Assembly (NCBI GenBank): GCA_964614185.1
Contig: CAZTKJ010000007.1
Location: forward strand, 5,592-69,591
DNA from: an uncultured Lachnospiraceae bacterium
Lineage (GTDB): Bacteria > Bacillota > Clostridia > Lachnospirales > Lachnospiraceae
Direction of reading: 5' to 3'
Length of the DNA stretch: 64,000 nt
The notes beneath the pieces are model-generated. The model was given only the letters and a program-made list of their open reading frames with translations. It was not told the origin of the DNA and made no database searches. This document shows, piece by piece, positions 45,134 through 63,801 of the stretch; position 1 is the stretch's first letter, and each line of letters begins with the position of its first letter. The position numbers and the translations under genes are program-made.

Positions 45134-46111
45134 ATGGAAATGGACTATCAGACTATAACAGATCATATGGATGACACGGCGATACCGGATGATACCCGGC
45201 ACATTCCCATGCACACATGGGATGATGTCCTGCTGTCTGCCTACAGCCAGCATCATCTTTCTTCAGATTTACGGCAGAATATCATTGCCTTAGAAGGGCT
45301 AACGTATCCCATTACTGAGCATACCAGTACTTTTTTTGAAATGATCTATGTGCTGTCAGGAACCTGCTGCCATCAGATCAATCAGAATACGGAACGAATG
45401 GATACTGTTGGCGATTTATGTATCCTGCCGCCTGCTGCACGGCATTCCATCTATACATCTGATAACAGCCGCCTTGTCCATATTCTGATTCGGCCTGCCG
45501 CTTTTATGGATATTCTCCCCGGCACTCTCAGCGGGCAGGATTCTTTGGGCAGCTTCTTAAAAAGAAGCATCTATCAAAACAAAGGGGAAAGTTATCTTTT
45601 GTTCCATACGCAGCAGGAAGAAGAGGTTCACCACACCATTCTGGATATACTTAAGGAAATGTCCAACATTGACGAATATACTGACAGCATTGTCTCCGGC
45701 ATGCTTTTGGCACTCTTTAGCAGGTTGCTGCGGACGCACAAAGACTTTGTAAAGTCTTCTCCCTGGGATCCCCGCATCAATGAAATTCTTTCCATGATTT
45801 ATGACCAATACAACACCATCACTTTATCCTCTCTGGCAGAGCATCTGCATTATACGGTTCCTTATTGTTCCAAGTATCTTAAGCAGCATCTTGGAAGCAC
45901 TTTTTCCCAGCTGATCAGACAGATCCGTTTTCAGAAAGCTGAACGCATGCTTATGAATTCCGGCATGACTATCACCCGGATCAGCAAAGAACTGGGCTAT
46001 GAAGATCTGGAGAATTTCGTCCGTGCTTTCAAGCATCAGTATCAGATGACTCCCTCCCAATACCGCTTATCCAACCGCCCTAAACTTCCCCCGGTTGAAG
46101 TAAGATCATAA
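45134..46111 (+). CDS. AraC-family transcriptional regulator
   Basis: cupin-like FFEMIYVLSG region and C-terminal double HTH (LGYEDLENFVRAFK..TPSQYR). Confidence 0.92.
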   Translation: MEMDYQTITDHMDDTAIPDDTRHIPMHTWDDVLLSAYSQHHLSSDLRQNIIALEGLTYPITEHTSTFFEMIYVLSGTCCHQINQNTERMDTVGDLCILPPAARHSIYTSDNSRLVHILIRPAAFMDILPGTLSGQDSLGSFLKRSIYQNKGESYLLFHTQQEEEVHHTILDILKEMSNIDEYTDSIVSGMLLALFSRLLRTHKDFVKSSPWDPRINEILSMIYDQYNTITLSSLAEHLHYTVPYCSKYLKQHLGSTFSQLIRQIRFQKAERMLMNSGMTITRISKELGYEDLENFVRAFKHQYQMTPSQYRLSNRPKLPPVEVRS

Positions 46112-48451: not shown

Positions 48452-50575
48452 ATGAGCGCACATCCCACACAGGACCCAAAAGGCATATCAAGAGAAGCAG
48501 AAGAAAATAATCTGCAGGAAACTCTTGCCATAATCAGAGACAACCTGACAAATTATGGACAGGAAGTTGCACGAATGCAGGAGAACATTGATGAAATGCT
48601 GGCCCATTATCATGATAATGATATAGAAGTGCTTACCATCTTAAATAATACGGTAACCTTGCATGAACATATGAAGCGTGCGCTTACGCGAAATGAAAAA
48701 GCCTTTAACAAACCATATTTTGGGAGAATTATTTTTCACGATGAAGCTCTTGACAGGGAAGAATCCATCTATATCGGCAAAGGTGGTATTTCTAAAGATG
48801 CCACTTGTCAGATTGTGGCAGACTGGCGGGCTCCGGTAGCAAATGCATACTACGAAAATGGTTTGGGCAGATGCAGCTATAAAGCCCCGGGAAACGTCCC
48901 CATTGAAATTGATTTAAAACTGAAGCGTACCTACGAGATCGAATCCGGAAAGCTTCTTGAGTATTTTGACAGTGAAGTGATTGCCAATGACGATCTTTTG
49001 ACTAAGTATCTTGCTAAAAATAAACAGGCTGTACTTAGTGAAATTGTCGCAACCATTCAAAAGGAACAAAATGAGATCATTCGGAAATCACCATATCACA
49101 ATATTATCGTGCAGGGTGTGGCCGGCTCCGGCAAGACCACTGTGGCCATGCACCGTATTTCTTACATCCTCTATAACTATGAAGAACGGTTTAAACCGGA
49201 TGATTTTTATATTGTGGGAAGCAACCGGATCCTGCTTAATTATATTACGGGAGTTCTTCCCGATCTGGACGTATATGGCATACGCCAGATGACTATGGAA
49301 CAGCTTTTTACCAGACTTTTGTATGAAGATTGGGATGATGGGAAATACCGGATCAAAAGTATGGATAAACACTGCATATCTGAAAGTGTCAAAGGCAGTT
49401 CCCTGTGGTTTAAATATTTGGAAGAATACTGCCATAAATTAGAACATGATACTATTTCCTTAAAATCTGTTTACCTGAATCCCCTGATCTGCCTGCTTAG
49501 CGGCGATGCCATAGAACGCTATGTTCTTCAAAACCCTGCCGTATCTATACAGAATAAAATCAATATGCTTAATGCCCGCCTTTTGGAAAAAATCAAAGAA
49601 GAATTTCTTAAAAACGGACTAAGGTACTCAGAAGCTGAAAGAAAGGCTATTTTAAAAGCCTACCGTGGATATTACGGTAAACGGACATGGAAACAGTCCA
49701 TTTTCCATCTATACCGTAATTTTCTGATGCAGCAACAACAGAATGGATATTGTTTGGAGATACCTGATAAGGAATTTGATATTTACGATCTGGCTGCTCT
49801 TGCTTATCTCTACAAACGGGTAAAAGAAACAGAGACGATCAGTGAAGCACACCATATTGTTATCGATGAAGCACAGGATTTTGGAATGATGGCGTATCAC
49901 GTTTTGAAATTCTGCATTTCCCAATGCACCTATACCATTATGGGAGATGTTTCCCAAAATATTCATTTTAGCTATGGTTTAAATGACTGGGAAGAATTAA
50001 AAAGTGTCTTTCTTGCCAATACCAGAGATAGTTTTAACGTTTTGAAAAAAAGTTACCGCAACACAGTGGAAATATCTGACTTTGCCACCGGTATATTGCG
50101 TCATGGAAACTTTTTTGTCTATCCTGCAGAACCTATCTTAAGACATGGCAGTCCGGTGCAGATCATACAGACCACGGACAGAAACACCTTGATCTGCGAA
50201 GCTTCCAAAATCTGCAAAAACTGGTTAAGCGGCTGCGGTGATCCTGCAAAAGAATTAGATACCATTGCCGTCATCTGCCGTAATCAGGCAAGCGCTAGGG
50301 ATGCTTCTAAAGAACTGGCAAAATATATTGACATTATAGAAAGTGATCTGGAAAAAGCAGTATTTGGAAGCGGCATCATGGTACTGCCAGTAGAATATAC
50401 GAAAGGACTGGAATTTGATGCTGTACTGATTTTAGATCCTACCTGTAAGGACTATCCTGTAGATGATGGACATGCCAAGCTGCTCTATGTTGCCGCTACC
50501 CGTGCACTCCATGAGCTATATATCCTCCATACGGGAACTCTTACGGGACTAATTGCAGACCCGGTACCTTCATAA
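48452..50575 (+). CDS. helD: HelD-like SF1 ATPase (RNA polymerase recycling factor)
   Basis: KPYFGRI, DWRAPVA, QGVAGSGKT, DEAQD, KGLEFDAV, YVAATRA. Confidence 0.85.
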   Translation: MSAHPTQDPKGISREAEENNLQETLAIIRDNLTNYGQEVARMQENIDEMLAHYHDNDIEVLTILNNTVTLHEHMKRALTRNEKAFNKPYFGRIIFHDEALDREESIYIGKGGISKDATCQIVADWRAPVANAYYENGLGRCSYKAPGNVPIEIDLKLKRTYEIESGKLLEYFDSEVIANDDLLTKYLAKNKQAVLSEIVATIQKEQNEIIRKSPYHNIIVQGVAGSGKTTVAMHRISYILYNYEERFKPDDFYIVGSNRILLNYITGVLPDLDVYGIRQMTMEQLFTRLLYEDWDDGKYRIKSMDKHCISESVKGSSLWFKYLEEYCHKLEHDTISLKSVYLNPLICLLSGDAIERYVLQNPAVSIQNKINMLNARLLEKIKEEFLKNGLRYSEAERKAILKAYRGYYGKRTWKQSIFHLYRNFLMQQQQNGYCLEIPDKEFDIYDLAALAYLYKRVKETETISEAHHIVIDEAQDFGMMAYHVLKFCISQCTYTIMGDVSQNIHFSYGLNDWEELKSVFLANTRDSFNVLKKSYRNTVEISDFATGILRHGNFFVYPAEPILRHGSPVQIIQTTDRNTLICEASKICKNWLSGCGDPAKELDTIAVICRNQASARDASKELAKYIDIIESDLEKAVFGSGIMVLPVEYTKGLEFDAVLILDPTCKDYPVDDGHAKLLYVAATRALHELYILHTGTLTGLIADPVPS

Positions 50576-50604: not shown

Positions 50605-50641
50605 AGCAGCAGGAAGCCTGGTGCTCCCTGCTGCTTTTTTT
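50605..50641. terminator. terminator between convergent helD and the MFP gene
   Basis: AGCAGCAGG/CCTGCTGCT stem plus T-run. Confidence 0.8.
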
Positions 50642-51986
50642 ACTCTTCTGTCAGTCTCACTACTTCTCCGTTTTTTATTTCTTTTGTGGAAGACGTTATG
50701 ATCCTGCTGTTAGCGTCAAGGGCGCCTTCTACCGCTACCCAGCTTTCGTTTTCATCCTGTATCCTCACAGTGACTTGTTCTACATAATATTCCGTACCGA
50801 GAATGCCCTCTCTTTCTTTTAGCACGTAAACAAAACTTCTGGTATTTTCCGTATGTACTGCCTCCGGCGTTACACAGCAGGAATGCTTTTCCCCGCTCTC
50901 TGAGTGACTCATGGTTCCTGACAAGCCCGGCACTCCCGTCCCTTCGGGAAGATTAATATACGCTTCATAGCTTCCGGGCATGGAAGTGCTTTCTAAAAGA
51001 TAATCTATGGTAGCATCCTTATCCCTGCTGCTTCCATCCAGCTTAAGAGCCACCTTATCATTCAATCCTACATATTTTTTCTGTTCCTTGGTGATCACTG
51101 TCTTAAACTGGCAGGGTACTGAATCATCTGCCATAAGCATAATGGCCGAGTCGGAAGTTCTGCCTCCTGTCCGGATATATACGTCCGTGATCAATCCGCC
51201 CTGCAATGCTCTGATCTGTCCTTCTGCATTCTTGATCTCCTGGAATTTCTGCAAATCAGCCTGAAGATTTGCAAGTTCTAACTGATTTATCTTTAAGATA
51301 GAATCTTCATTTTCCGGCGAAGTAATGTCTTCTACCTTTCTCCCTGCTTCCTTTATGGCATTATCCCTTCTCCATTTTGCATCTGCTTCTGCATATGCTG
51401 CCTGCTGGAGCGCATCGAACAATGTTTCATCCACCTCTCCTTCTCCCATTCCTCCTTCAATCTGATCGGCTATCTCATTCTCTATCTTGCTATATTCTTC
51501 TGCTGCTCTGCCTACCAGTGTATCTTCATATCTTGCCTGTGCATCATAGTCTTCCCTGGCCCGCTGTTCTTCCAGCTCTTTTTTTTGTCTTTCCAGCTCT
51601 TCATTTTCCAGAATAGTATTGATCTGTGTCTGCAGTTTGGAAATTTCTACCTGTTTTGCATTCATAATATTGGCAAGGTCTTCCAGATCTACCGTAAAGA
51701 GCACATCTCCCTCTTCCACCCGGTCTCCTTCCTGCACCATCAGCTTATCCACCCGAAGACCATTCAAAGTGGTAATGGGGTTTTTATCTCCGGCCACTAC
51801 AATACCCTCTGCATTTACAATATGCTCCACGTATTTCTGTTCCACGGTCTCTGTTGACACAATAGGCAGCCGTGACGCATAAATACTTTTGGAAATCACT
51901 GTACAAAGCCACATGAATACTAAAAATATTAAAAAACCTGTGACTATTTTTTTCTTTCTGCTATCCTCCAAGGTGTCATCCTCCAT
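50640..51986 (-). CDS. membrane fusion protein / efflux periplasmic adaptor-like
   Basis: N-terminal TM, split lipoyl half-motifs (VQEGDRVEEGDVLF; GGLITDV), long coiled coil, membrane-proximal C-terminus. Confidence 0.85.
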   Translation of the reverse strand: MEDDTLEDSRKKKIVTGFLIFLVFMWLCTVISKSIYASRLPIVSTETVEQKYVEHIVNAEGIVVAGDKNPITTLNGLRVDKLMVQEGDRVEEGDVLFTVDLEDLANIMNAKQVEISKLQTQINTILENEELERQKKELEEQRAREDYDAQARYEDTLVGRAAEEYSKIENEIADQIEGGMGEGEVDETLFDALQQAAYAEADAKWRRDNAIKEAGRKVEDITSPENEDSILKINQLELANLQADLQKFQEIKNAEGQIRALQGGLITDVYIRTGGRTSDSAIMLMADDSVPCQFKTVITKEQKKYVGLNDKVALKLDGSSRDKDATIDYLLESTSMPGSYEAYINLPEGTGVPGLSGTMSHSESGEKHSCCVTPEAVHTENTRSFVYVLKEREGILGTEYYVEQVTVRIQDENESWVAVEGALDANSRIITSSTKEIKNGEVVRLTEE

Positions 51987-52022
51987 TTCATACTTCCTTT
52001 TTATCCCTTCAAATGTTACACT

Positions 52023-52898
52023 CTACTCCTTTAATCCTGAAAAAATAATTCCCTGTTCCAAATAATCCTGACCCCAAATGAAAACAAAGACTGCCGGAAT
52101 CAATGTAATAATTGATGTTGTAAAGGCGTATCCGGCCTGGGCCCATGTGATTTCAGGAAGGTACAGTGATAATGGCCACAAAGACTTATCCTCCAGAAAA
52201 GCCATAGGCTGTTCCATCATATTCCAATATTCCAGGAATCCAAGAACCATCGCTGATAATAATCCGCTTTTTCCTAATGGAAGTCCTATTTTAAAGAGAA
52301 TCTTTAACTCTCCTGCCCCGTCAATCCGTGCTGCCTCCAGCAGCTGTATGGGAATACCTCTGAATCCGCCATAGGTGAGGAAAACGGGAAACGTAGAAAA
52401 GACTGCCGGCAAAATTACTGCCGACTGTGTATTGAGCATTCCCAGTTTACTGAGAACCAGATAACTGGACAGCATAGTAACCTGAAAAGGCAGAAGCATC
52501 AATACTACATAAAGTACGAATAATACCCTGCTTCCTTTTACTTTATATACTGCAAATGCCCAGGCGGCAGGAATTCCTATAAGAAGCTGTCCTGCCAAAA
52601 TGCATCCTACCATCTTAACAGAATTCCAGAATAGTACAAAAAATTGCGGCGTCATGAAAAGTAATCTGCCATAATTTCCAAAGGTAGGATAATTAGGTAT
52701 TAATTTCCAGCTTATGTATTCCATTGCATCTGAAAAAACCGGCGACAGATGCTGTTGCAGTTCTCCATTACTCATAACGGAACCTGTCACCAATAATACA
52801 ATGGGCAGACAGACAAGGAGCGTAGGAATCATGATCAGGAAAACAGTTATTCCCTTTTTTATATTTTTTAGCTGTATTTTTAAATCTCGCAAATTCAT
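52023..52898 (-). CDS. carbohydrate-type ABC permease (MalG-like)
   Basis: QLLEAARIDGAGE EAA loop, LEYWN..PLSLYL. Confidence 0.9.
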   Translation of the reverse strand: MNLRDLKIQLKNIKKGITVFLIMIPTLLVCLPIVLLVTGSVMSNGELQQHLSPVFSDAMEYISWKLIPNYPTFGNYGRLLFMTPQFFVLFWNSVKMVGCILAGQLLIGIPAAWAFAVYKVKGSRVLFVLYVVLMLLPFQVTMLSSYLVLSKLGMLNTQSAVILPAVFSTFPVFLTYGGFRGIPIQLLEAARIDGAGELKILFKIGLPLGKSGLLSAMVLGFLEYWNMMEQPMAFLEDKSLWPLSLYLPEITWAQAGYAFTTSIITLIPAVFVFIWGQDYLEQGIIFSGLKE

Positions 52899-52913
52899 CC
52901 GATCTCCTCCGCT

Positions 52914-53801
52914 TTAGGCATCCTGCTTATCCCATAAGTGCTGCAGCAGCATGATCACAATAAATAGGAATCCGCCTACACAGACTGCCGCCGCCGCCAT
53001 CTTATCAAAATCCAGATTGACAAACCAGTTATTGAATAAGTGCTGTAGCAGATACATATCCTGCTGGGGATAAGCTCCTGCCACCAAATAAGCCTCCCTG
53101 TATATTTTAAAAGAATTTAAAAAGGAGAGAATCACTATGGTATAGAGGCTTCCTTTTAAATTGGGCAATATTATTTTAAAAAAGCACTGTCTCTCAGAAG
53201 CTCCATCTACCCTTGCCGCCTCCAGCAGTTCATTAGGAATACTCAGAATTCCTGCCAGCCAAAGAACAATTGTATATCCTGTATTCTTCCATATATAACT
53301 GAATACCAGTACCCAGAAAGCAGCGCTGCTTCCTAAATAATCCCGATATGTTTCCCCCCACAGACCGGTTCCCTCTCCCAGTTTCGTTAACAGCAGATTC
53401 AAAAACCCCTGCTTATAAAAAACCATTTTCCACACAATCACTATAGTTGCTGTAGGCATGGCAAGGGGAAACAAATACAGCGACTTAACGGTTCCCATAC
53501 TTTTCAGTTTGCTGATAGGCAGGGCCAGCATAAGGCCGATCACTACCAATAGCGGAATACACACCAAAGTAAAGCGGAATGTATTTTTAACTGCCAAAAG
53601 AAAAGCCTGATTGGCACAAATTGTCTGGTAGTTCTGAAATCCTACAAACTGACTTGTTACAACTGTCTTAAATGACCGTCCAAACACATCCAGAAAGGGC
53701 AGCATTACAAAGATCAATACTCCTAACAGACTGGGAACCATAAACAAGGCAAATGCCTGAGTATCCTTATGCTTCCTGATACCGGACTTGTGTATTTTCA
53801 T
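52914..53801 (-). CDS. carbohydrate-type ABC permease (MalF-like)
   Basis: WKNTGY..LAGILSIP.ELLEAARVDGA. Confidence 0.9.
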   Translation of the reverse strand: MKIHKSGIRKHKDTQAFALFMVPSLLGVLIFVMLPFLDVFGRSFKTVVTSQFVGFQNYQTICANQAFLLAVKNTFRFTLVCIPLLVVIGLMLALPISKLKSMGTVKSLYLFPLAMPTATIVIVWKMVFYKQGFLNLLLTKLGEGTGLWGETYRDYLGSSAAFWVLVFSYIWKNTGYTIVLWLAGILSIPNELLEAARVDGASERQCFFKIILPNLKGSLYTIVILSFLNSFKIYREAYLVAGAYPQQDMYLLQHLFNNWFVNLDFDKMAAAAVCVGGFLFIVIMLLQHLWDKQDA

Positions 53802-53813
53802 CAGCTTCCCTCC

Positions 53814-56261
53814 CTACTCCGCAAGATAAATTGCCATTTTCTTTTCAATGGAATCTAACGCCTCTGAAAGGCTCTTTCGCCCTTGCATGTAAGCGATACC
53901 TTCTTCGTATACCGCGTTCTCCAGAACCGTATCCTCGATATACGGAATCTTCACAGATTCCATATAAGCCTGCAATTCCGCAACTTGTGACTGACTTGGA
54001 CAGTAGACAGACAGAGAAATCATGTGTCCCTCATAATTATTTGTGGCAAGGCCGCCCCACCGTTCATCTGTGCCGTCTCCTGCCTCAGAGGCAAATCCCT
54101 CCAGAAAAGCCGCCTTGTTCACCGGCAGACCTCCATACAAGTTACTCTGATTTTCTTTTCCAAACAATGCTTTCACAAAATCTTCCGCCGCCTCAGTCTG
54201 CTCCGATGCCGCACTGATTCCAAGCAATGTCTTTGCGAAAAAAACATTTTCACACTGTCCGTTCATTGGCACCCATCCACAGTTTTCATATCCCTGAACC
54301 CTTGAAACGGAAACCATCTCCGCGTAAGTCCAAAATCTGTCGATATATCCCCACACTCCATCAACCATACCTCCTGTAAACCTAAGACAATCCATGGATA
54401 TTCTCATGGTATCCGTTTCGTCCCAGGGCGCACCAAATTCTTCTTCTGAAAAAGCGTTCCAATCGGTCTCGTACGCCTCCAATATATAGTCCGCTATACC
54501 ATCCATCTGCGCATCGTAGATTCTCTTCGTCTGTTTCAGGAATTCCGAAATCATCTCCCGATCCACTGCTCCATCTTCCGTCATCCACACAGGTTCGGAT
54601 ACCGGGGAAAACATCCGCATGATCCCTTTTTCCGTATACAGTTTAAGCAAATCTCCTTCCGGATGGTTCTTTCTAAGCTTTTCTACCGCATCCGCAATAT
54701 CTGACAGGTTCTTGATTCCTGTTATTTCTGATTTCCTGTTAACTATGGCCGGAAGCCGAACCTCACAGGGCATCATATAAATCCCCTCACCAGTTTTGAA
54801 GGCGTCCACAATATTGCCAAAAAGCTCATCTTCACCGCTCATATTGTTAAAGATCGGGCTTAAGTCGCGCAACACACCTTTCTCTATATAAGAATCCACA
54901 GGCATATCATCCAAAATAAGTATATCCGGCCCCTCTCCCGCCATGATCTTGGTATTGAGCCTCTTTAAGGCGTCTTCTCTCGTGACGGAATTACCACCTT
55001 CTATACCAACCTCATACTTCACATAAATCTCCGGATTATCAGTCTGATACTGATTAATTGCCTGCCTCATGGTTGCATTGTCTTTTAAGCTGTAGACATC
55101 AAGCTGTTTCACAGGGACAGTGGGAATATCCGCATCATAAACAAAATGTACGATCTTTCCGCCCGAAAACAATGCCATAAATTCATTGTTCTCCAATGCG
55201 ACCATACCTTCTATCACATAGGACGGATTACTGAAGATGCTTAAGTTTCCGTCTATGATCTGCTCCATGGCGCTGCCACCCACTACATGGCGGTAAAGTC
55301 CTTTATCTCCTGCAATATACAAAACACCGTCCTGATCCAGAAAGAAGAACATATCATACCAGTTACCACTGAGACCATTTCTGCCGTCATAGTTTTCTTT
55401 CACAAAATCCTCTAAGACCTCATCCTCTATATACTGCTTCTGTTCCATGTCATAGATCAGCGGCGATGCATAATCCCATCCGTCCATGAACATCATCCCA
55501 CCATAAAATTGTATCAAGTCCGGTGAACTATCCTCCGCCCTGAGAAACAGTTTGCTTGTTCCGTCTTCCAGAATTTCATAGATATTCGCGCTCTGAGTAG
55601 TGACAAAGATCCTGCCATCGTCCGATATATATGCATCTTTCAAACGGACATCCTCTTCCGTCAATTCCACTTCCACCGGTATCTCTGTTTTATCCGGCTT
55701 AATGATGAGAAGCTGCGGATTCAAAAGCACCCCTGTGTCATCCTGTGAATCTGTCTCTGTATCGTTATCTGCGTTGTTATCCTGCACAATCTCCGAGCCT
55801 TCTGCCTCGGTGCTTGCAGCATCCGAATCCGCCGCCTGATAGATCACCGCCACAGTATTATCGCCACCCACTGCCGCACTCATGATATAGTCGCCGCTTT
55901 CCACCATTCTGGTATTCCAGGTGCGCTTATCGTAAAACCATCTCTGTCCGCCATCCTTGGTGATCATAAAAGGACACCATGCGTCAGTAATGACCATCTG
56001 ACCATTGTTCAGCTTAAACAGACGATTGCTATTGCCTGAAAGACTGGCGCCGTCCCCAAAATACCCTGTTTTCTCCACGTAACGTCCCATAGGTGTACCT
56101 TCAGCATATTGCTGCGTACTCTGTCCGCCTGTACTGCTGCCTTGCACGCTATCCTGCCCATCTCCGGCTGCTCCGCCATTCCCACATCCTCCAAGCAAAG
56201 CAGATAAAACCACAAATGAGAGTATGATTGATATTATCCTCTTTTTTCCTGTTCTTCTCAT
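53814..56261 (-). CDS. large lipoprotein: Asp-box propeller-like region + solute-binding domain (copy 2)
   Basis: LGGC lipobox, GTPMGRYVE, TKDGGQRW, NTKIMAGEGPDILIL. Confidence 0.85.
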   Translation of the reverse strand: MRRTGKKRIISIILSFVVLSALLGGCGNGGAAGDGQDSVQGSSTGGQSTQQYAEGTPMGRYVEKTGYFGDGASLSGNSNRLFKLNNGQMVITDAWCPFMITKDGGQRWFYDKRTWNTRMVESGDYIMSAAVGGDNTVAVIYQAADSDAASTEAEGSEIVQDNNADNDTETDSQDDTGVLLNPQLLIIKPDKTEIPVEVELTEEDVRLKDAYISDDGRIFVTTQSANIYEILEDGTSKLFLRAEDSSPDLIQFYGGMMFMDGWDYASPLIYDMEQKQYIEDEVLEDFVKENYDGRNGLSGNWYDMFFFLDQDGVLYIAGDKGLYRHVVGGSAMEQIIDGNLSIFSNPSYVIEGMVALENNEFMALFSGGKIVHFVYDADIPTVPVKQLDVYSLKDNATMRQAINQYQTDNPEIYVKYEVGIEGGNSVTREDALKRLNTKIMAGEGPDILILDDMPVDSYIEKGVLRDLSPIFNNMSGEDELFGNIVDAFKTGEGIYMMPCEVRLPAIVNRKSEITGIKNLSDIADAVEKLRKNHPEGDLLKLYTEKGIMRMFSPVSEPVWMTEDGAVDREMISEFLKQTKRIYDAQMDGIADYILEAYETDWNAFSEEEFGAPWDETDTMRISMDCLRFTGGMVDGVWGYIDRFWTYAEMVSVSRVQGYENCGWVPMNGQCENVFFAKTLLGISAASEQTEAAEDFVKALFGKENQSNLYGGLPVNKAAFLEGFASEAGDGTDERWGGLATNNYEGHMISLSVYCPSQSQVAELQAYMESVKIPYIEDTVLENAVYEEGIAYMQGRKSLSEALDSIEKKMAIYLAE

Positions 56262-56287
56262 TATTGCCCCAACTTTCCTTTCAAACT

Positions 56288-58675
56288 TTATTCTGCGAGA
56301 TAAATTGCCAGTCTCTTTTCAATCTGATCTACAGCATCCTCTAAGCTTTGGGAACCCTGCATATAAGCAATCCCTTCTTCGTATACCGCATTTTCAAATG
56401 CATCATCTTCTACATAAGCCGTGGTTGCCGATTCCATCCATGTGACTAAATCATTAACTTCCTCTTCCTCCGGAACTCTGATTACAATATGCACATAAAG
56501 ACCGTCATCATTACTCAAAGTAAAAGAACCATATATATTATCTTTACTTTTATTCTTCCTGTTCTCAAAATCACCTAAAAGGGCTGCTTTATTAACTGCC
56601 ATACCGCCAAGCAGATTCATCTGATTTTCTTTGCCAAATACTGTCTTTACAAAATCCTCTGCCTGGGCGGGTTCTTTAGATGCTCCATTGATTCCTATCA
56701 ATGTTCTGGCCCAAAATACATTGCTGCACTGTCCGTTCATAGGAATTATTTCACAATCTTCAAATCCCTCCATAGTGGGTATGGATATCTGTCTTGCATA
56801 CTCTTCGGCATTCAACAAAGAACCCATGGCCAGTTTACGCAGATCTCCTGCAAACTGCACATCCCCTTCATACATCCTGATATCATCAGAATCCTCCATA
56901 GATTCACCGAGAGTTCTTACATAGTATGCACTTGTTTCATTCCACTCCCATATGGCCTGCTCCGGAAGGCCATCCATCTGTGCATCATAAATCCTCTTGG
57001 TCTGGGTCAAAAATTCTGCAATAGCTGCCTTGTCAATTTCTCCCTTTTCCGTTCTCCATGCCGGTGCCGATACCATGGAAAACATTCTCATAATTCCCTT
57101 TTCCGAGGCAATTTCCACCAGATTGGCTCCCGGATTATTTTTTCGAAGGGTTTCCATTCCATCTGCAATACCCTCTAAATCCTTCATCATCGTAACATCT
57201 TCTCCCCTGCCTAAAATAAAAGGCATCTGTACTTCACAGGGCATTGCATAGATCTTTCCCTCTTTTCTGAAAGCATCCACCATATTTCCCAAAAGCTCAT
57301 CTTCACCACTCATGCCATCCAGTATTGAGCTGATATCCATAAGCAGTCCCTTTTCAATATACGAATCCACAGGCATATTATCCAATATCAATACATCCGG
57401 TCCGTCTCCCGCCATAACCTTGGTATTCAGGCTTTTCAGAGCATCCTCCCTGGTAATGGAATTATTCTCGCCCATACCGATTTCGTATTCTACATAAACT
57501 GCCGGATTAGCCGTCTGATACAAGCTGATGGCCTGACGAATAGTGGCATTTTCCTGCAGACTGTATACTTTTACTTTGCCTGTAGGCACTGTGGGAATAT
57601 CAGGATTATAGGTGAAGCGCACCAGTTTTCCCTCTGTAAATAAAACCAGAAATTCATTATTCTCCAGCAGAACCATCCCTGCTATACTGTATGCAGGGTT
57701 TCCAAAAGTACTGAGATCTCCATCAATGATCTGCTCCATAACGCTGCCGCCAAGCACATGGCGGTATAAGCCTTTATCTCCTGCAATGTATATGACATTA
57801 TCCTTATCCGGCAGGAAAAACATGTCATAATATTCTCCGGAATAACTGTTTCTTCCTTTATAATTTTTCTCTATAAATTCTTCTAAAACCTCATCCTCTA
57901 TGTATTCATCAGTGTCCATGTCGTAAATCAAAAGAGAGTCATATCCCCATCCATCCATGAACATAAGATTATCATAAAACTGTATCAGTTCCGGGCGTCC
58001 ATCCTCTGCTGTGATGAATTTCTCACTGCTTCCATCTTCCTTTATTTCATATATATTAGAACCGAGGGTGCCTGCAAAGATTCTTCCCGTATCTGCAACG
58101 TATGCCGATGCTATCCAAAGATCTTCTTCCGTCAGCTCTACATCGGCTGTTATCTCAGTACCGTCAGGTTTAAATACAAGCAGTTGTGTATCCAGATCCT
58201 CTTCCCTTGAATCTTTTTCCATTGATTCTGCCCGGACAGCAGCTACTGTATTATCCGAACTTACTGATACACTCATAATATAACCATCATTAGCCATAAG
58301 CTTTGCAAACCACGGTTTTTTTGCCTCTCTCCAATTCTTCCCATTATCTCTTGATTCCAGCATAGAACCGCCACTGTCAACAATGATCAGAGTTCCGTCT
58401 TCCAGCTTATAAAGGCGGCTGCCTGATCCGGAAAGCTTAATTCCATTAGGAAATTCTACTGTTTCTTCCACATAACGGCCCATAGGTGTCCCCTCCGCCC
58501 ACTGACTGCCATCCTGGGAGTTTCCTGTATTACTTTCCATACCACTGTTTCCTATGGTATGCTCTGCCCCTTGTCCGGTTCCCATGCCGCATCCGCTTAT
58601 GATGCCAAAGAACATTGCTGTAATCAAAAATACCGCTGTGATTTTTGCTTTAACTGACATATACTGCCTCACCAT
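56288..58675 (-). CDS. large lipoprotein: Asp-box propeller-like region + solute-binding domain (copy 1)
   Basis: ISGC lipobox, GTPMGRYVE, SRDNGKNW, NTKVMAGDGPDVLIL. Confidence 0.85.
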   Translation of the reverse strand: MVRQYMSVKAKITAVFLITAMFFGIISGCGMGTGQGAEHTIGNSGMESNTGNSQDGSQWAEGTPMGRYVEETVEFPNGIKLSGSGSRLYKLEDGTLIIVDSGGSMLESRDNGKNWREAKKPWFAKLMANDGYIMSVSVSSDNTVAAVRAESMEKDSREEDLDTQLLVFKPDGTEITADVELTEEDLWIASAYVADTGRIFAGTLGSNIYEIKEDGSSEKFITAEDGRPELIQFYDNLMFMDGWGYDSLLIYDMDTDEYIEDEVLEEFIEKNYKGRNSYSGEYYDMFFLPDKDNVIYIAGDKGLYRHVLGGSVMEQIIDGDLSTFGNPAYSIAGMVLLENNEFLVLFTEGKLVRFTYNPDIPTVPTGKVKVYSLQENATIRQAISLYQTANPAVYVEYEIGMGENNSITREDALKSLNTKVMAGDGPDVLILDNMPVDSYIEKGLLMDISSILDGMSGEDELLGNMVDAFRKEGKIYAMPCEVQMPFILGRGEDVTMMKDLEGIADGMETLRKNNPGANLVEIASEKGIMRMFSMVSAPAWRTEKGEIDKAAIAEFLTQTKRIYDAQMDGLPEQAIWEWNETSAYYVRTLGESMEDSDDIRMYEGDVQFAGDLRKLAMGSLLNAEEYARQISIPTMEGFEDCEIIPMNGQCSNVFWARTLIGINGASKEPAQAEDFVKTVFGKENQMNLLGGMAVNKAALLGDFENRKNKSKDNIYGSFTLSNDDGLYVHIVIRVPEEEEVNDLVTWMESATTAYVEDDAFENAVYEEGIAYMQGSQSLEDAVDQIEKRLAIYLAE

Positions 58676-58731: not shown

Positions 58732-58765
58732 ATCATATCAATCTTTTCTCTAAAGAATCTCTAAA
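58732..58765 (-). promoter_or_regulatory. extended -10 with a tandem direct repeat over the -35 region
   Basis: TGA-TATGAT; TTTAGAG twice at 11-bp period (58748-58754, 58759-58765); -35 non-consensus. Confidence 0.5.
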
Positions 58766-58824
58766 AAACAGGACCAAATAAATTTCAATGGTTTTTAAGC
58801 CAACTCATTTATTTAGTCCTGTTT
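58766..58824 (-). terminator. terminator after the aldo/keto reductase gene
   Basis: AAACAGGAC.AAATAAAT / ATTTATTT.GTCCTGTTT stem plus U-run. Confidence 0.7.
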
Positions 58825-58866: not shown

Positions 58867-59862
58867 TCATTCCATCAGTATCTCATCAATTCTGTCGCAT
58901 TCCTCCTGCGAAAAATGAGTATTCTGAAGACATTTTATATTTTCTTTGATCTGCTCCGGTCTGCTGGCTCCAATCAGTACAGATGTTACCTTTTCATCTC
59001 TTAAGATCCATGCCAGCGCCATCTGTGTCAAAGTCTGACCTCTTTCCACTGCTATTTCCTGCAGCGCCCCTACTGTTTCCAGTTTCTCTTTGGAAATATC
59101 CTCACGATGAAGATAGGGACTCTTTCCGCTTCCTGCCCTGGAATCAGTAGGAATTCCTTTTATATATTTGCCTGTAAGGATTCCCTGAGCCAAAGGGCTG
59201 AATGCGATACATCCGATTCCGTTATTGTACAAAAAATCTTTGACGCCATCTGTTTCAATCCATCTGTTTAACATAGAATAGGAAAGCTGATTGATAATAA
59301 AGGGCGTTTTCTGCTCTTGCAAAATACGGTATGCTTCTTTAGTCTGTTCCTGATTATAATTGGAAATCCCTACGTAAAGCGCTTTGCCGCTTCTTACAAT
59401 CTGATCCAGAGCCTGCATGGTTTCTTCCATAGGCGTATCATTATCCGGACGATGATGGTAAAAAATATCCACATAGTCCAGTCCCAGTCTTTTAAGGCTT
59501 TCGTCCAGACTGCTGATCAAATACTTCCGTGAGCCTCCGTCACCATAAGGACCCTTCCACATATCGTATCCGGCTTTAGTGGAAATGACCATTTCTTTTC
59601 TGTAGGGCATCATATCCAACTTTAAGATTTTACCCATATTCATTTCTGCGCTTCCGTACACCGGACCATAATTGTTTGCAAGGTCAAAATGTGTAATTCC
59701 ATTGTCAAACGCCGTAAACAAAATCTGTTTCATGTTCTCTATACTATTGACTGAACCGAAACTGTGCCACATCCCAAGGGAAAGCGCCGGAAGCTTTAGT
59801 CCGCTCCTGCCACACCGGTTGTAGATCATATTCTCATATCTTGCTTCATTTGCCCTATACAT
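58867..59862 (-). CDS. aldo/keto reductase (YghZ/L-glyceraldehyde-3-phosphate reductase-like)
   Basis: FDLANNYGP, ISTKAGY, DIFYHHRPD, FSPLAQG; start moved to MYRAN. Confidence 0.92.
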   Translation of the reverse strand: MYRANEARYENMIYNRCGRSGLKLPALSLGMWHSFGSVNSIENMKQILFTAFDNGITHFDLANNYGPVYGSAEMNMGKILKLDMMPYRKEMVISTKAGYDMWKGPYGDGGSRKYLISSLDESLKRLGLDYVDIFYHHRPDNDTPMEETMQALDQIVRSGKALYVGISNYNQEQTKEAYRILQEQKTPFIINQLSYSMLNRWIETDGVKDFLYNNGIGCIAFSPLAQGILTGKYIKGIPTDSRAGSGKSPYLHREDISKEKLETVGALQEIAVERGQTLTQMALAWILRDEKVTSVLIGASRPEQIKENIKCLQNTHFSQEECDRIDEILME

Positions 59863-59897
59863 CTCTGCCTCCGTAAAAATCAAACCTGTAATAACCC

Positions 59898-62156
59898 CTA
59901 TTTACTATACCTGCGGGTTCTCGCATCCGTTATCACTCCGTCAAAATTCATTCCGTATCCAAAATCATACACATGGCCTTCTTCATCCTGATAGCACTTC
60001 ATATCAAATGCTACATCTTCTTTTTGGTCTTCCACTGTCTCCATGTTTGCGGGAATCTGGATCGGCAGAAGTCCCTGGGGAGTAAATCTTCCTGTCAGAA
60101 CATCAAGTACTGCCTCAGGTGTTACACCATATTCTACAAGAATTGCATCTGTATAAGGCTCCAGTTCCGCCATCACCATTGGATTCTTTAAAAAGACTGC
60201 TGCAATGACCGGCTTATTGCCCATTTTCTTTTTCGTATCTATGATAATATCTAAATCTGCTTCATTTGCTGCAGTATTCCATTTACCGCAATAACTGCGG
60301 TCTTTGGATTGTTCTAAAGGATCTCCTCCGGCAATACTTGGTTTTCTTGCAGACAGTGCCTGATAGGGACGGTACTGTAGTGTAACGGGTACATATCCGT
60401 TGCCGCCTGCTTTGCGGTCATCGGGATCATATCCTACAGAAATAGGAGATTCGATAAAGCACAGTGCTGCATCTGCTTCCTCCGGTGTATCCACCACTGT
60501 AAAATACCGGGATGCCACCTGCTTTGCCTCTGGTGTTATCTTCTGTTCTTTCGTAGGATGGCTCATAAAGTCCAGATATGATTTTACATATCTGTCCGGA
60601 ATATAAACCTTGATCCCCTCTTTTAAAGGAAGTACTTTTTTCTTATTTTTCAGCATTGTCACAGATTTAAGCTGGGAAAGATATCCCTTTTCCTTAAAAG
60701 CAGGACATCCCACCGTATTTTGTGATTCTTCCAGATCCAGATAAGGATTTTCAAACAACCCTGTTCGGAAAATATTCAGAAGAAGCCTGTAAGCAGACCG
60801 TCTGAACCGGGCATCTGTTTCTTCTCTGCCATACTTTTCACAACTCATCTTGTATGCTTCCATAACCGGCTCTACCTTGTTATTCCCTCCAAACTGGTCA
60901 ACACCGGCTTCTATTGCTTTAAGATGACGTTCTGCTTCTGAAAGATGCTCCACACCCCAGCACTTTCCTGCAAAAGTTTCTTCCGCTTCTCCAATGTCAT
61001 GGGTAATTCCCCAATCTGTGCATACCACACCTTCATATCCAAGTTCTTCTCTGAGCAGATCCTGTATCAGATATTTATTGTAAGAATTTCCCACATTTTC
61101 TCCATACTTCTGGTCTATTCCATAAGAAATCGTATAGTACGGCATGACTGCACTTGCTTTTTTCGTCTTACCTTCCAGAGAAAATGCACCTTCTGTAAAT
61201 GGTTTCAAATGTTCCTTAAAATTCTCTCCCGGATAAACAGCATATTTTCCATAGGCATAATGGGCATCTCTTCCTCCTTCACACATTCCTCCACCCGGAA
61301 AATGCTTTACCATAGTATTTACGCTGTCACTGCCCCAGCCGTCACTGCTGTCCTTGGTGGTTTGAAATCCGTCACAATACGCTTTGCCCATGTCTATGGT
61401 CATTCCGGTATGTTCTCCAAAAGTATCTGCAAACCGCATCCACCTTGGTTCTGTTGCCAGATCAATCTGTGGGGACAGTGCCGTTGTAATTCCCAGTGCA
61501 CGATACTCCTTAGAAGCAATTTCCCCAAATTCCTTCACTAATTCCGGATCAAAAGAGGCTGATAATCCTATTCCGTTGGCCCATTTGGAAATAGGTTCTC
61601 CGGTCACTCCCATATATTCTGCTGTGGAACCGGCCCCATGTCTTGGATCGGAACTGTTATTTGCAGGAATTCCAAAGCCTGCTCCTTCTGCCAGTGCCTG
61701 CAGTTTATTATTCCAGCGTACTGCCGCTTTTGTGCTTTCCAAAGACATGATCAGAACATGACGTACCTTGTCCTTTACAATAAATTCCTTCTGCTGGTCT
61801 GTCAGCTCCCATGGGTCTGCGCCACTTTCTTCATAACTCTTTCCATCATAGGTTCCTCCAAAAGCTCCCGCCATAGCCCCTTTTGCCGGAATCAACTGAT
61901 GGGCGCTATACAGCATAAGTCCCGCAATGTCCTCAATAGAAATTCTTTCTGACAAGTCCTTTGCCCTCTCTTCATAAGAAAGCCGCCAGTCCTCATAAGG
62001 AACCAGTTTCCCTGTTCCAAGAAAATCCTTAAAAGCATATCCATCCTCTGTCAGAATATCTACTTTACTGTCCGTGGCAATTCCAAGAGTTTTTCCTTCG
62101 TCATTTACCACCAGGTAATACCCGTCTTTTTCAATCTTTTTCCACTTCTTCTCCAT
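59898..62156 (-). CDS. GH3 beta-glucosidase-like glycoside hydrolase
   Basis: EPRWMRFADTFGE, KHFPGGG, CTDWG nucleophile; no signal peptide. Confidence 0.92.
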   Translation of the reverse strand: MEKKWKKIEKDGYYLVVNDEGKTLGIATDSKVDILTEDGYAFKDFLGTGKLVPYEDWRLSYEERAKDLSERISIEDIAGLMLYSAHQLIPAKGAMAGAFGGTYDGKSYEESGADPWELTDQQKEFIVKDKVRHVLIMSLESTKAAVRWNNKLQALAEGAGFGIPANNSSDPRHGAGSTAEYMGVTGEPISKWANGIGLSASFDPELVKEFGEIASKEYRALGITTALSPQIDLATEPRWMRFADTFGEHTGMTIDMGKAYCDGFQTTKDSSDGWGSDSVNTMVKHFPGGGMCEGGRDAHYAYGKYAVYPGENFKEHLKPFTEGAFSLEGKTKKASAVMPYYTISYGIDQKYGENVGNSYNKYLIQDLLREELGYEGVVCTDWGITHDIGEAEETFAGKCWGVEHLSEAERHLKAIEAGVDQFGGNNKVEPVMEAYKMSCEKYGREETDARFRRSAYRLLLNIFRTGLFENPYLDLEESQNTVGCPAFKEKGYLSQLKSVTMLKNKKKVLPLKEGIKVYIPDRYVKSYLDFMSHPTKEQKITPEAKQVASRYFTVVDTPEEADAALCFIESPISVGYDPDDRKAGGNGYVPVTLQYRPYQALSARKPSIAGGDPLEQSKDRSYCGKWNTAANEADLDIIIDTKKKMGNKPVIAAVFLKNPMVMAELEPYTDAILVEYGVTPEAVLDVLTGRFTPQGLLPIQIPANMETVEDQKEDVAFDMKCYQDEEGHVYDFGYGMNFDGVITDARTRRYSK

Positions 62157-62190
62157 AAGATACCACGTCCCCTGTTCCTGCCAATATCAA

Positions 62191-63756
62191 TTAGTGCTGT
62201 ATATCCTGAGTTTCCATGATTTTGACCATATTAAAAGGCGGAAGAATACTGTCGATCAGCTCATACAAAGCATCATCAAAATTCATTCTTACCTCACATA
62301 CTCTGTCAAAGATCATGGTAGGCTCCTGCGCAGTTGTTACCGCCGGCCATGCCGGCAGATTATCATGGCCCGGATTGCCTGTCTTTGCAAATGCAATAAA
62401 GGCATCAAACATCTGTGATTCCAGCTTATCGCTTACTCCCGGCATACCGCAGATTTCCACCTTGTCTGTATTGTGGAAGAAAAACGGTATGTCAGAACAA
62501 TGCCATGCTATCTTATTGTACATAAAAGGAAATTCCAAAGTGAAATCATACAGGTAGGTATTCTTTTTCCCACCTTTGGCATGCATTCCGGCAAGCAGTT
62601 TTGAAGACTGACGCATAGCACGGTCAACTACCAGCAAATCCGTTGCATTCTTATCCGGATAAGCCTTTTTAAAGGCTTCTATCATTTCCTCTGTGTGCTC
62701 CTTATAAACTTTTCTGACTTCTTCTCTAATCTGTTCTTCTGTTAATTCCATCTTATTAAATGTGGCCGGTGCAAATGAAAATTCTCCAAATACGGTTCCG
62801 ATCAATACAGGAACATCATAAGCATGTTCACGCAGACCATAATCTAAAGGATGACCTGCATAGTAATCGTTGACCAGAGGATTCCCTCCAATATAGCCAC
62901 CTTTCCTTGCAATAGCCGGACTTACCTTGGCATATGCTTCTGCCAGCTGCGGATAAGGTATTGTTTCCAGTTTGTCAACTTCCTCTTCTGTCCATCCAAA
63001 TTCATTTAGCAAAGCCATGACGATTTCCCGTCCGTTTCCTTTTTCAGCATACAGCATTCCCTTATCCCGGTTGCTGACGCCACTCATGATCATTCCTTTA
63101 TGAAACAGACCGTCTGCTTCTTTGATCTGCATTAGATCCGCTACCTTACATCCTCCTCCGGACTGTCCGAAAACAGTGACATTATCAGGATCTCCTCCAA
63201 AGGCAGAAATATTGTCATGAATCCATTTCAGTGCTGCAACCATATCTGCATGACCTGCGTTCCCTGAATTCTGATATTTTTCTCCAAAAGGCGATAAATC
63301 CAGATAACCGAGAATATTCAGTCTGTGGTTAATAGACACTACTACCACATCCCCCTGCATACACATATTGAATCCGTCATATGCCTCCTGTTCTATGGAA
63401 GAGCCTGCAAAATATCCACCTCCATGAAGCCATACTACTACAGGATTTTTAGCTTCTTTATCCAGTGCTTTCGTCCAGATATTTAAGTTCTGGCAATGTT
63501 CATTCTGCGGCCAGTAACGATGGGGCACCATCAGTTCTCCATTTGGTGTTTCCTGAGCCATAAGAGGGCATACGAAGCCATAAGACGTTACATCTTTAAC
63601 CCCCTCCCATTTTGATTCCACCGGCATTTGAAACCGGTCTGCATAGGCATAGGGAATTCCCTTAAAAATATATTCGCCGTCATAAAAATACCCCTTTAAT
63701 TTTCCGGAAGTTGTTTCCAGTACCGGAACATCATCATACCTGAATGTTTTAACCAT
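62191..63756 (-). CDS. type-B carboxylesterase (pNB-esterase-like)
   Basis: FKGIPYA, WLHGGG, GQSGGG catalytic Ser, AWHCSD; start moved to MVKTF. Confidence 0.93.
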   Translation of the reverse strand: MVKTFRYDDVPVLETTSGKLKGYFYDGEYIFKGIPYAYADRFQMPVESKWEGVKDVTSYGFVCPLMAQETPNGELMVPHRYWPQNEHCQNLNIWTKALDKEAKNPVVVWLHGGGYFAGSSIEQEAYDGFNMCMQGDVVVVSINHRLNILGYLDLSPFGEKYQNSGNAGHADMVAALKWIHDNISAFGGDPDNVTVFGQSGGGCKVADLMQIKEADGLFHKGMIMSGVSNRDKGMLYAEKGNGREIVMALLNEFGWTEEEVDKLETIPYPQLAEAYAKVSPAIARKGGYIGGNPLVNDYYAGHPLDYGLREHAYDVPVLIGTVFGEFSFAPATFNKMELTEEQIREEVRKVYKEHTEEMIEAFKKAYPDKNATDLLVVDRAMRQSSKLLAGMHAKGGKKNTYLYDFTLEFPFMYNKIAWHCSDIPFFFHNTDKVEICGMPGVSDKLESQMFDAFIAFAKTGNPGHDNLPAWPAVTTAQEPTMIFDRVCEVRMNFDDALYELIDSILPPFNMVKIMETQDIQH

Positions 63757-63801
63757 TGTATACCCTCCCATTTTTAATTTTGACATAATTACATTATCTT
63801 T

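Follow-up and report, generated by a model that had tools for sequence, protein, structure and literature searches.

A five-gene operon that combines importer-type ABC permeases with a membrane-fusion adaptor in an uncultured Lachnospiraceae bacterium

Gene content of the operon

The window analysed here is a stretch of 64,000 nucleotides from the genome of an uncultured Lachnospiraceae bacterium (assembly GCA_964614185.1, contig CAZTKJ010000007.1, positions 5,592 to 69,591 of the forward strand). On its minus strand, ORF (open reading frame) calls give five co-oriented genes between positions 50640 and 58675, separated by gaps of 26, 12, 15 and 36 bp. These encode two lipoproteins resembling solute-binding proteins (SBP1 and SBP2), two membrane subunits of an ATP-binding cassette (ABC) transporter (PermF and PermG) and a membrane-fusion protein (MFP), also referred to as the adaptor. 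The original prediction, which was made from the sequence letters, had described the locus in just this way, as a closely spaced hybrid of two binding-protein-like lipoproteins, a MalF-like and a MalG-like permease and an exporter-type adaptor, without an ATPase. All five assignments could be reproduced in a scan with Pfam and NCBIfam hidden Markov models (HMMs), and no ATPase gene is found inside the five-gene operon.

The first gene, SBP1 (56288-58675, minus strand), encodes a lipoprotein of 795 aa, in which a beta-propeller (residues ~67-360) precedes a MalE-type solute-binding domain (residues ~365-795), as judged from Pfam, AlphaFold2 (AF2) and Foldseek. The start at 58660, which shortens the protein to 790 aa, is probably the more likely one compared to 58675, given the GGTGAGG located 6 nt ahead of its ATG. 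SBP2 (53814-56261, minus strand; 815 aa) is a tandem paralogue with ~50% identity and the same combination of propeller and binding domain. Both proteins start with a lipoprotein signal peptide, with the lipoboxes IISGC in SBP1 and LLGGC in SBP2, and in both the SBP_bac_1/SBP_bac_8 match is confined to the C-terminal half.

PermF (52914-53801, minus strand; 295 aa) and PermG (52023-52898, minus strand; 291 aa) are type I ABC membrane subunits of the MalF/UgpA and MalG/UgpE type, respectively. They match BPD_transp_1 (PF00528) with E-values of 1.4e-15 and 6.9e-13, and their best named relatives in NCBIfam and Pfam are GlcT/UgpA and UgpE/MalG. The EAA loops that had been noticed in both permeases are indeed present (LLEAARVDGASE in PermF and LLEAARIDGAGE in PermG) and are kept across 47 relatives, as seen on visual inspection of their sequences.

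The last gene encodes the adaptor (50640-51986, minus strand), a YknX/MacA-type membrane-fusion protein of 448 aa. It matches HlyD_2, Biotin_lipoyl_2 and the RND_mfp model TIGR01730 (E 4e-17), and precomputed Pfam matches to PF25989 (YknX_C) are found in its family. The transmembrane (TM) anchor, split lipoyl motifs and long coiled coil proposed earlier were recovered in an AF2 model with a mean pLDDT (predicted local distance difference test) of 82.9. The model contains a TM helix (residues 4-38), a hairpin of two ~70-residue helices (101-177 and 187-253) and split lipoyl, beta-barrel and membrane-proximal domains. Over its full length it could be aligned with Foldseek to AcrA, MexA, MacA, ZneB, EmrA and the pneumococcal Spr0693 (E 1e-15 to 1e-9), so that the complete MacA/AcrA-type adaptor fold is present. 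Within the family, total lengths range from 386 to 747 aa; the TM helix and the membrane-proximal domain are best conserved and the hairpin least.

An invariant pairing of permeases and adaptor

The combination of an importer-type permease pair with an adaptor was sampled starting from either partner. A search with the adaptor at E <= 1e-30 places 339 of 1.84 billion cluster representatives in its subfamily. Five genome loci found in this way, whose adaptors share 32-43% identity with that of the window, all show the order binding protein(s), PermF, PermG and then the adaptor, and the same order is seen in close metagenomic relatives. Six further adaptor representatives (27-30% identity) were followed to their loci. 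Five of these had usable context, and in all five the gene immediately upstream encodes a PermG orthologue with 52-55% identity. In the adaptor-first sampling as a whole, a PermG orthologue or permease pair adjoins the adaptor in 10/10 informative loci, at identities of 27-70%.

Starting from the permease, a PermG match (E <= 1e-30) was obtained in 48 out of 201 genomes of the order. All 47 permease pairs scoring at least 170 bits, drawn from 40 fetched regions and the earlier loci, have the adaptor next to them. The sole homologue sampled below this threshold (L050, 134 bits) has no adjacent adaptor. In a maximum-likelihood tree, in which adaptor adjacency was assigned with an HMM, the adaptor-linked PermG proteins, including that of the window, group in a single clade (support 100/99, stem length 1.0) that leaves out L050 and seven ordinary permeases encoded by the window's own genome. 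Because adaptor-first sampling, permease-first sampling and phylogeny agree, the pairing is not due to chance; it is invariant across the permease clade. The hybrid character that had been suspected of the operon thus stands, with the adaptor kept beside the permeases in 47/47 and 10/10 loci, and the proposed neighbourhood survey indeed finds such adaptors together with MalF/MalG-type permeases in gut Clostridia.

In this gut-dominant order, about a quarter of the genomes sampled contain the module, often in several copies; as this fraction follows from the permease search at E <= 1e-30, it is an upper bound. Beyond the order the module is seldom found. A search at E <= 1e-40 among 401 genomes of the phylum gave seven matches, which include the window's own genome and two of its family; the four further genomes all contain complete modules.

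It was also considered whether the adaptor could be the stray partner of another pump. The genome does encode a canonical Gram-positive MacAB/YknXYZ-like pump (C54:6224-9669; positions with a C prefix refer to the same genome), consisting of a nucleotide-binding domain (NBD) protein of 231 aa, an adaptor of 494 aa and an FtsX-type permease of 405 aa. Since this pump has its own adaptor and a second hybrid module exists in the genome (see below), the adaptor of the window is not such a stray. In reviews of MacB systems, Gram-positive adaptors are described in operons with macB homologues, and their role where there is no outer membrane is left open (PMC5985334).

The missing ATPase

The lack of an ATPase gene in the operon is ordinary sharing and no anomaly, because only one of the 63 ABC ATPase-like ORFs of the genome carries a MalK-type OB domain (C6:67707-68816, MsmX type) and because the genome contains about eight other sugar-type permease pairs without an ATPase. 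This single MsmX-type ATPase presumably also pairs with PermF and PermG. In most other loci the ATPase is likewise unlinked to the module. Where an ATPase is encoded within the cluster, as is the case in six loci (L018, L042 and L051-L054), it is always of the MsmX/MalK type, scoring 328-466 bits to the MsmX-type gene of the window's genome. A MacB-type NBD was found in none of the 47+4 clusters.

A larger module in related genomes

In 30 of the 47 loci, the adaptor gene is directly followed by a gene for a membrane protein of 300-430 aa with a MacB-type periplasmic core domain (PCD). These PCD proteins belong to one family, some with two and others with four TM helices. Four of the five that were scanned reach the Pfam gathering score for MacB_PCD, and none of the five has an FtsX match. 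The clade of the window is without this protein, and the only two PCD-like genes of its genome lie in other systems. The window operon is thus a reduced form of a larger module, from which the motor-less MacB-PCD subunit is missing.

Most modules also adjoin a two-component system. In at least 21 loci this is an OmpR-type regulator with a kinase whose extracellular domain of ~150 aa forms the loop between two TM helices (residues 9-27 and 181-199). In one sub-clade (L024, L032, L034, L036 and L039), the binding proteins are short (410-490 aa), and a LytTR-type regulator with a GHKL kinase of 510-560 aa takes the place of the OmpR pair. The 112 proteins flanking about 40 modules most commonly match Response_reg, LytTR and ABC_tran in Pfam, and include only one glycoside hydrolase. 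The linkage to catabolic genes that is expected of a CUT1 importer is thus lacking, and the setting is not one of polysaccharide utilisation. Phage defence and secretion systems were dropped as readings too, since no domains in their favour were found; PADLOC returned no matches.

The second hybrid module of the genome is a distant one (C2:101080-111992). It encodes binding proteins of 757 and 756 aa, a 460-aa ORF, permeases that are 35% (PermF') and 41% (PermG') identical to those of the window, an adaptor of 666 aa and a MacB_PCD protein of 362 aa with two TM helices. The EAA loop of PermF' is degenerate (EVAILES).

The propeller lipoproteins and their link to CbpC

In the AF2 model of SBP1 (pLDDT 81.6), residues 67-360 fold into an N-terminal domain made up entirely of beta-strands, ~28 in number, which the family profile matches to PQQ-type beta-propellers. 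As single-protein sequence searches of the PDB were weak, profiles and a fold search were used instead. In the Foldseek search with the SBP1 model, each of the 50 highest-ranking PDB entries has a MalE-type binding-protein fold, either natural or in fusions and designs based on maltose-binding protein. Across the entire PDB, the binding domain is matched best by Clostridium thermocellum CbpC (7x0o, E 1e-16, TM-score 0.72). CbpC is also the best natural binding-protein match of the SBP family profile, and a near-top match for a short binding protein that was taken from a complete module.

CbpC belongs to the so-called transporter C of C. thermocellum (Cthe_2125-2128 / Clo1313_2783-2786), a cluster of four genes with no ATPase listed. 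With its 438 aa it has no propeller, unlike SBP1 and SBP2. A knockout of transporter C grew normally on glucose, cellobiose and Avicel/cellulose, none of the tested sugars was bound by CbpC in isothermal titration calorimetry or nuclear magnetic resonance, and an extra loop blocks its pocket (PMC9601137). In the same study, an 'acra' gene is named, without comment, in a figure legend that covers the transporter clusters (PMC9601137). In published work, transporter C has been treated as a sugar transporter and its adaptor left undiscussed. Transporter C probably belongs to the family described here, which would make it a genetically tractable candidate member for which a knockout and a crystal structure are at hand.

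Promoter, boundaries and a putative regulon

The operon had been said to be bounded by a promoter and a terminator, and hairpins are indeed located at both of its ends. Upstream lies the intrinsic terminator hairpin of an aldo-keto reductase gene (58770-58820, minus strand; 14-bp stem, U-tract at 58763-58769, -18.2 kcal/mol, z -5.2), which was matched by none of 200 shuffled sequences (0/200) and sets the operon apart from the upstream GH3/esterase genes. It is followed by a tandem direct-repeat box with an 11-bp period (TTAGAGATTCTTTAGAGA, 58747-58764, minus strand), a putative site for an OmpR-type response regulator at the -35 position. An extended -10-like element (TGATATGAT, 58732-58740, minus strand), read from the sequence, begins 6 nt downstream of the box. 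A sigma-70 consensus scan did not call this element, no -35 being present. The only site called by the scan, TTTACA-17-AATAAT, is unlikely to be the operon promoter, as it lies upstream of the terminator hairpin. At the 3' end, a GC-rich hairpin (50605-50635, -28.2 kcal/mol) is located between the convergent genes for the MFP and a UvrD-like helicase. As its U-tract is on the plus strand, it is primarily the terminator of the helicase gene and only possibly bidirectional. Taken as a whole, the structure of the operon fits a single transcription unit. In one metatranscriptome, contigs of a 90-95% identical relative cross all four gene junctions. They cross the upstream intergenic region too, at flat depth, so that DNA carry-over or read-through may be involved.

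No two-component system flanks the operon in the window. Elsewhere in the genome, two orphan propeller lipoproteins are encoded (C29:21732-26507 and C70:7269-11927), which are 50% and 34% identical to SBP1 and each divergent from an OmpR-type regulator-kinase pair. The upstream region of the operon and the C29 promoter have a 13-mer in common. The operon carries the only exact copy of TTAGAG-N5-TTAGAGA in the 3.28 Mb genome (0.17 expected). When one mismatch is allowed, the only other correctly placed intergenic boxes precede the C29 lipoprotein gene and the gene of a 181-aa lipoprotein (C7:75350-75895), while the C70 promoter contains a copy with two mismatches. The same box also precedes the first binding-protein gene in nine relatives (L001, L006, L008, L011, L012, L014, L015, L055 and L059), at the same distance to a TGnTAT -10-like element; the spacing in the C29 promoter is similar. 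All of these except L006 have a two-component system beside the module, with none found within the fetched region of L006. Because its promoter holds the unique box, and the same box occurs in relatives with adjacent two-component systems, the operon would be a member of the regulon of this regulator family, switched from an unlinked locus.

The 181-aa lipoprotein locus (C7:75350-75986) lies ~6 kb past the end of the window. It displays four tandem boxes with an 11-bp period (TTAGAAC/TTAGAGA/TTAAAGA/TTAAAGA), and the lipoprotein is probably a further member of the regulon, as judged from these repeats. A two-mismatch box (TTGGAGTAAAGTTAGATA) is also located at C6:68867-68884, where it precedes the only MsmX-type ATPase gene by ~50 nt; this may be a matter of chance, or it may tie the ATPase to the regulon.

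Comparison with known systems

In textbooks, binding-protein-dependent type I importers are kept apart from adaptor-dependent exporters and mechanotransducers. The module fuses these two worlds, and does so invariantly. With CUT1 importers that use a shared ATPase (MalEFGK2, UgpBAEC and the MsmX-dependent systems of Bacillus subtilis) it shares the two EAA-loop subunits of the BPD_transp_1 family, the MalE-type lipoprotein receptors and the ATPase that is encoded elsewhere, here by a single MsmX-type gene. Unlike these importers, it has an obligate adaptor, propeller-fused receptors, OmpR/LytTR control and a permease clade of its own, as well as a PCD protein in relatives, and it is without linked catabolic genes.

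The Gram-positive MacAB-like pumps (YknWXYZ from B. subtilis, Spr0693-0694-0695 from Streptococcus pneumoniae and AS-48EFGH from Enterococcus faecalis) contain the same four-domain adaptor with an N-terminal TM anchor in a monoderm, and their MacB periplasmic core domain returns in the protein beside the adaptor in relatives of the module. They differ in their FtsX-domain permease and MacB-type NBD, instead of which the module has a MalFG-type pair and a MalK-type ATPase; in the window, the PCD is absent as well. Bce-type modules (BceRS-BceAB) likewise combine an OmpR-type system and an ABC machine with tandem direct repeats in the promoter. In contrast to the 10-TM permease of the BceB type, however, the permeases here are of the BPD_transp_1 family, binding proteins and an adaptor are present, and the kinase is not an intramembrane-sensing one, having an extracellular domain of ~150 aa.

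At the sequence level, the window operon displays the features that define the module, optionally with a PCD protein: PermF and PermG from the dedicated clade, a YknX-like adaptor gene next to them, genes for binding proteins and putative control by a two-component system. Literature searches, which included the C. thermocellum locus tags, did not turn up any account of an importer-type ABC system that includes an adaptor, and a 2026 review of bacterial glycoside transporters does not mention HlyD, an adaptor or MacB. As far as these searches go, the module is an undescribed variant of ABC transporters, to which the window adds the PCD-less form, the duplicated propeller receptors and a split regulon marked by its regulator box.

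Direction and cargo of transport

The original prediction had named three candidate roles, namely a conduit through the cell wall, export or detoxification by an importer fold, and sensing, all of which are still candidates. There is an even chance, in our judgement, that the operon encodes an import machine, i.e. a type I binding-protein-dependent ABC system in which the adaptor is an obligate subunit and the ligand moves inward. The inward direction is favoured because import is what all binding-protein-dependent type I systems known so far carry out. In the proposed mechanism, the OmpR-type systems of C29 and/or C70 would induce expression of the operon. Up to four propeller lipoproteins (SBP1, SBP2 and those of C29 and C70) would feed one channel, by taking the ligand outside the membrane and docking on PermF/PermG. 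A dimer of the MsmX/MalK-type ATPase would dock on the EAA loops, and ATP hydrolysis would then drive the ligand inward. The adaptor would be held to the permeases through its TM helix and membrane-proximal domain, and several copies of it, six if MacA/YknX are a guide, would assemble into a sleeve that surrounds the docking site. Its hairpin of ~10 nm could extend into the wall zone and organise the access of the receptor or the ligand. A common dietary or plant sugar destined for catabolism is probably not the ligand, since the flanks are without glycoside hydrolases (bar the one mentioned above), CbpC bound none of the tested sugars and the knockout of its transporter had no sugar phenotype.

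Several considerations weigh against this proposal. To our knowledge, all membrane-fusion proteins characterised to date work in export or expulsion, and an adaptor that works inward would be unprecedented. The binding of the adaptor to the permeases and receptors, as well as its oligomerisation, is inferred, and six adaptors in a ring above the docking face could compete sterically with a receptor of 800 aa. The two-component systems of C29 and C70 are only candidates for acting on the box, and the RNA data fall short of proving co-transcription. The membership of transporter C in the family is only probable, judged as it is from its binding protein and the figure legend. Furthermore, the ligand may be a sugar after all, given that an earlier study did report sugar binding by CbpC (Nataf 2009, as cited in PMC9601137 and PMC11212667).

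The main rival, which is considered unlikely, has transport proceed in the opposite direction. In that case the importer-fold motor would act as a MacB-like mechanotransducer for envelope detoxification, and a membrane-active peptide, bacteriocin or other toxin would be expelled through the adaptor tube by movements driven by ATP, after being taken from the outer leaflet or wall zone by the receptors or the adaptor chamber, with the two-component system sensing the threat. In Gram-positives, the only known settings of adaptors and of MacB periplasmic domains are systems that protect against toxins or peptides (such as YknXYZ, Spr0693-0695 and AS-48EFGH; PMC5985334). A MacB_PCD protein directly after the adaptor in most relatives, the OmpR/LytTR control also seen in many peptide-response loci, the patchy and multi-copy distribution and the fast evolution of the extracellular parts would all suit expulsion, as would the two observations that speak against a catabolic sugar, namely the flanks without catabolic genes and the C. 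thermocellum relative without sugar binding or phenotype. The window operon, however, lacks the very PCD protein through which such a mechanism would act, the ATPase is a sugar-importer MsmX/MalK type with a regulatory domain and never has a MacB-type NBD, and a canonical MacAB-like pump is already encoded at C54. Moreover, we know of no type I ABC system (MalFG fold, EAA loop, binding-protein-dependent) that exports.

The paralogous propeller lipoproteins that stand alone and divergent from the kinase-regulator pairs of C29 and C70 raise the question of a sensing device, in which the lipoproteins would report ligand binding, or flux through PermFG, to the kinases and transport would be secondary. 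This has parallels in three-component systems of binding protein, kinase and regulator and in Bce-type flux sensing. The extracellular domain of the kinase could receive a partner, the box ties the C29 and C70 loci and the operon into one regulon, and the pocket of CbpC is reported to be blocked. Sensing as the main function is nevertheless distinctly improbable: it leaves the invariant adaptor, the two EAA-loop permeases and the in-cluster ATPases of some loci unexplained, simple regulation equally predicts a gene beside its regulator, and a sensing role fits either transport model and is hence not a real alternative. Finally, the operon could encode a plain CUT1 sugar importer, next to which an unrelated adaptor gene, working with another pump, is found by coincidence. 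The best named matches of the permeases and binding domains are sugar systems, GH3 genes lie upstream in the window and ATPase sharing is normal in this genome. Yet the adjacency is invariant across deep divergence within a dedicated permease clade, a terminator stands between the GH3 cluster and the operon, the only MacB-type pump of the genome already has its own adaptor and the flanks elsewhere are not carbohydrate loci. Such a scenario is extremely improbable, and coincidental adjacency is essentially excluded.

Beyond the import machine proposed above, a wider picture may tentatively be drawn, which is rather doubtful as it stands: a MalFGK2-type motor that drives a wall-spanning adaptor assembly in monoderms, switched by a two-component system, and serving either as a binding-protein-gated conduit for bulky or wall-associated ligands or as the first importer-fold expulsion system, with mechanotransmission through parts derived from MacA/MacB. 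If so, it would be an ABC machine of a new functional class, and might amount to a new route through the Gram-positive wall. Knowing the direction and cargo would show what membrane-fusion proteins do without an outer membrane, a long-standing question, and the regulator box offers a direct handle on the inducing signal.

Neighbouring genes

Upstream of the operon, a cluster on the same strand (58867-63786, minus strand) encodes the aldo-keto reductase, a GH3 beta-glucosidase and a carboxylesterase, and an AraC-type regulator is found at 45134-46111 (plus strand). These genes are behind a terminator and are not kept beside the module in other genomes. On the other side, the convergent UvrD-like helicase gene (48452-50575, plus strand) encodes 707 aa, compared to 1082-1133 aa at the same position in the relatives L001-L004. 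Judging by these lengths, the helicase may be N-terminally shortened in this genome.

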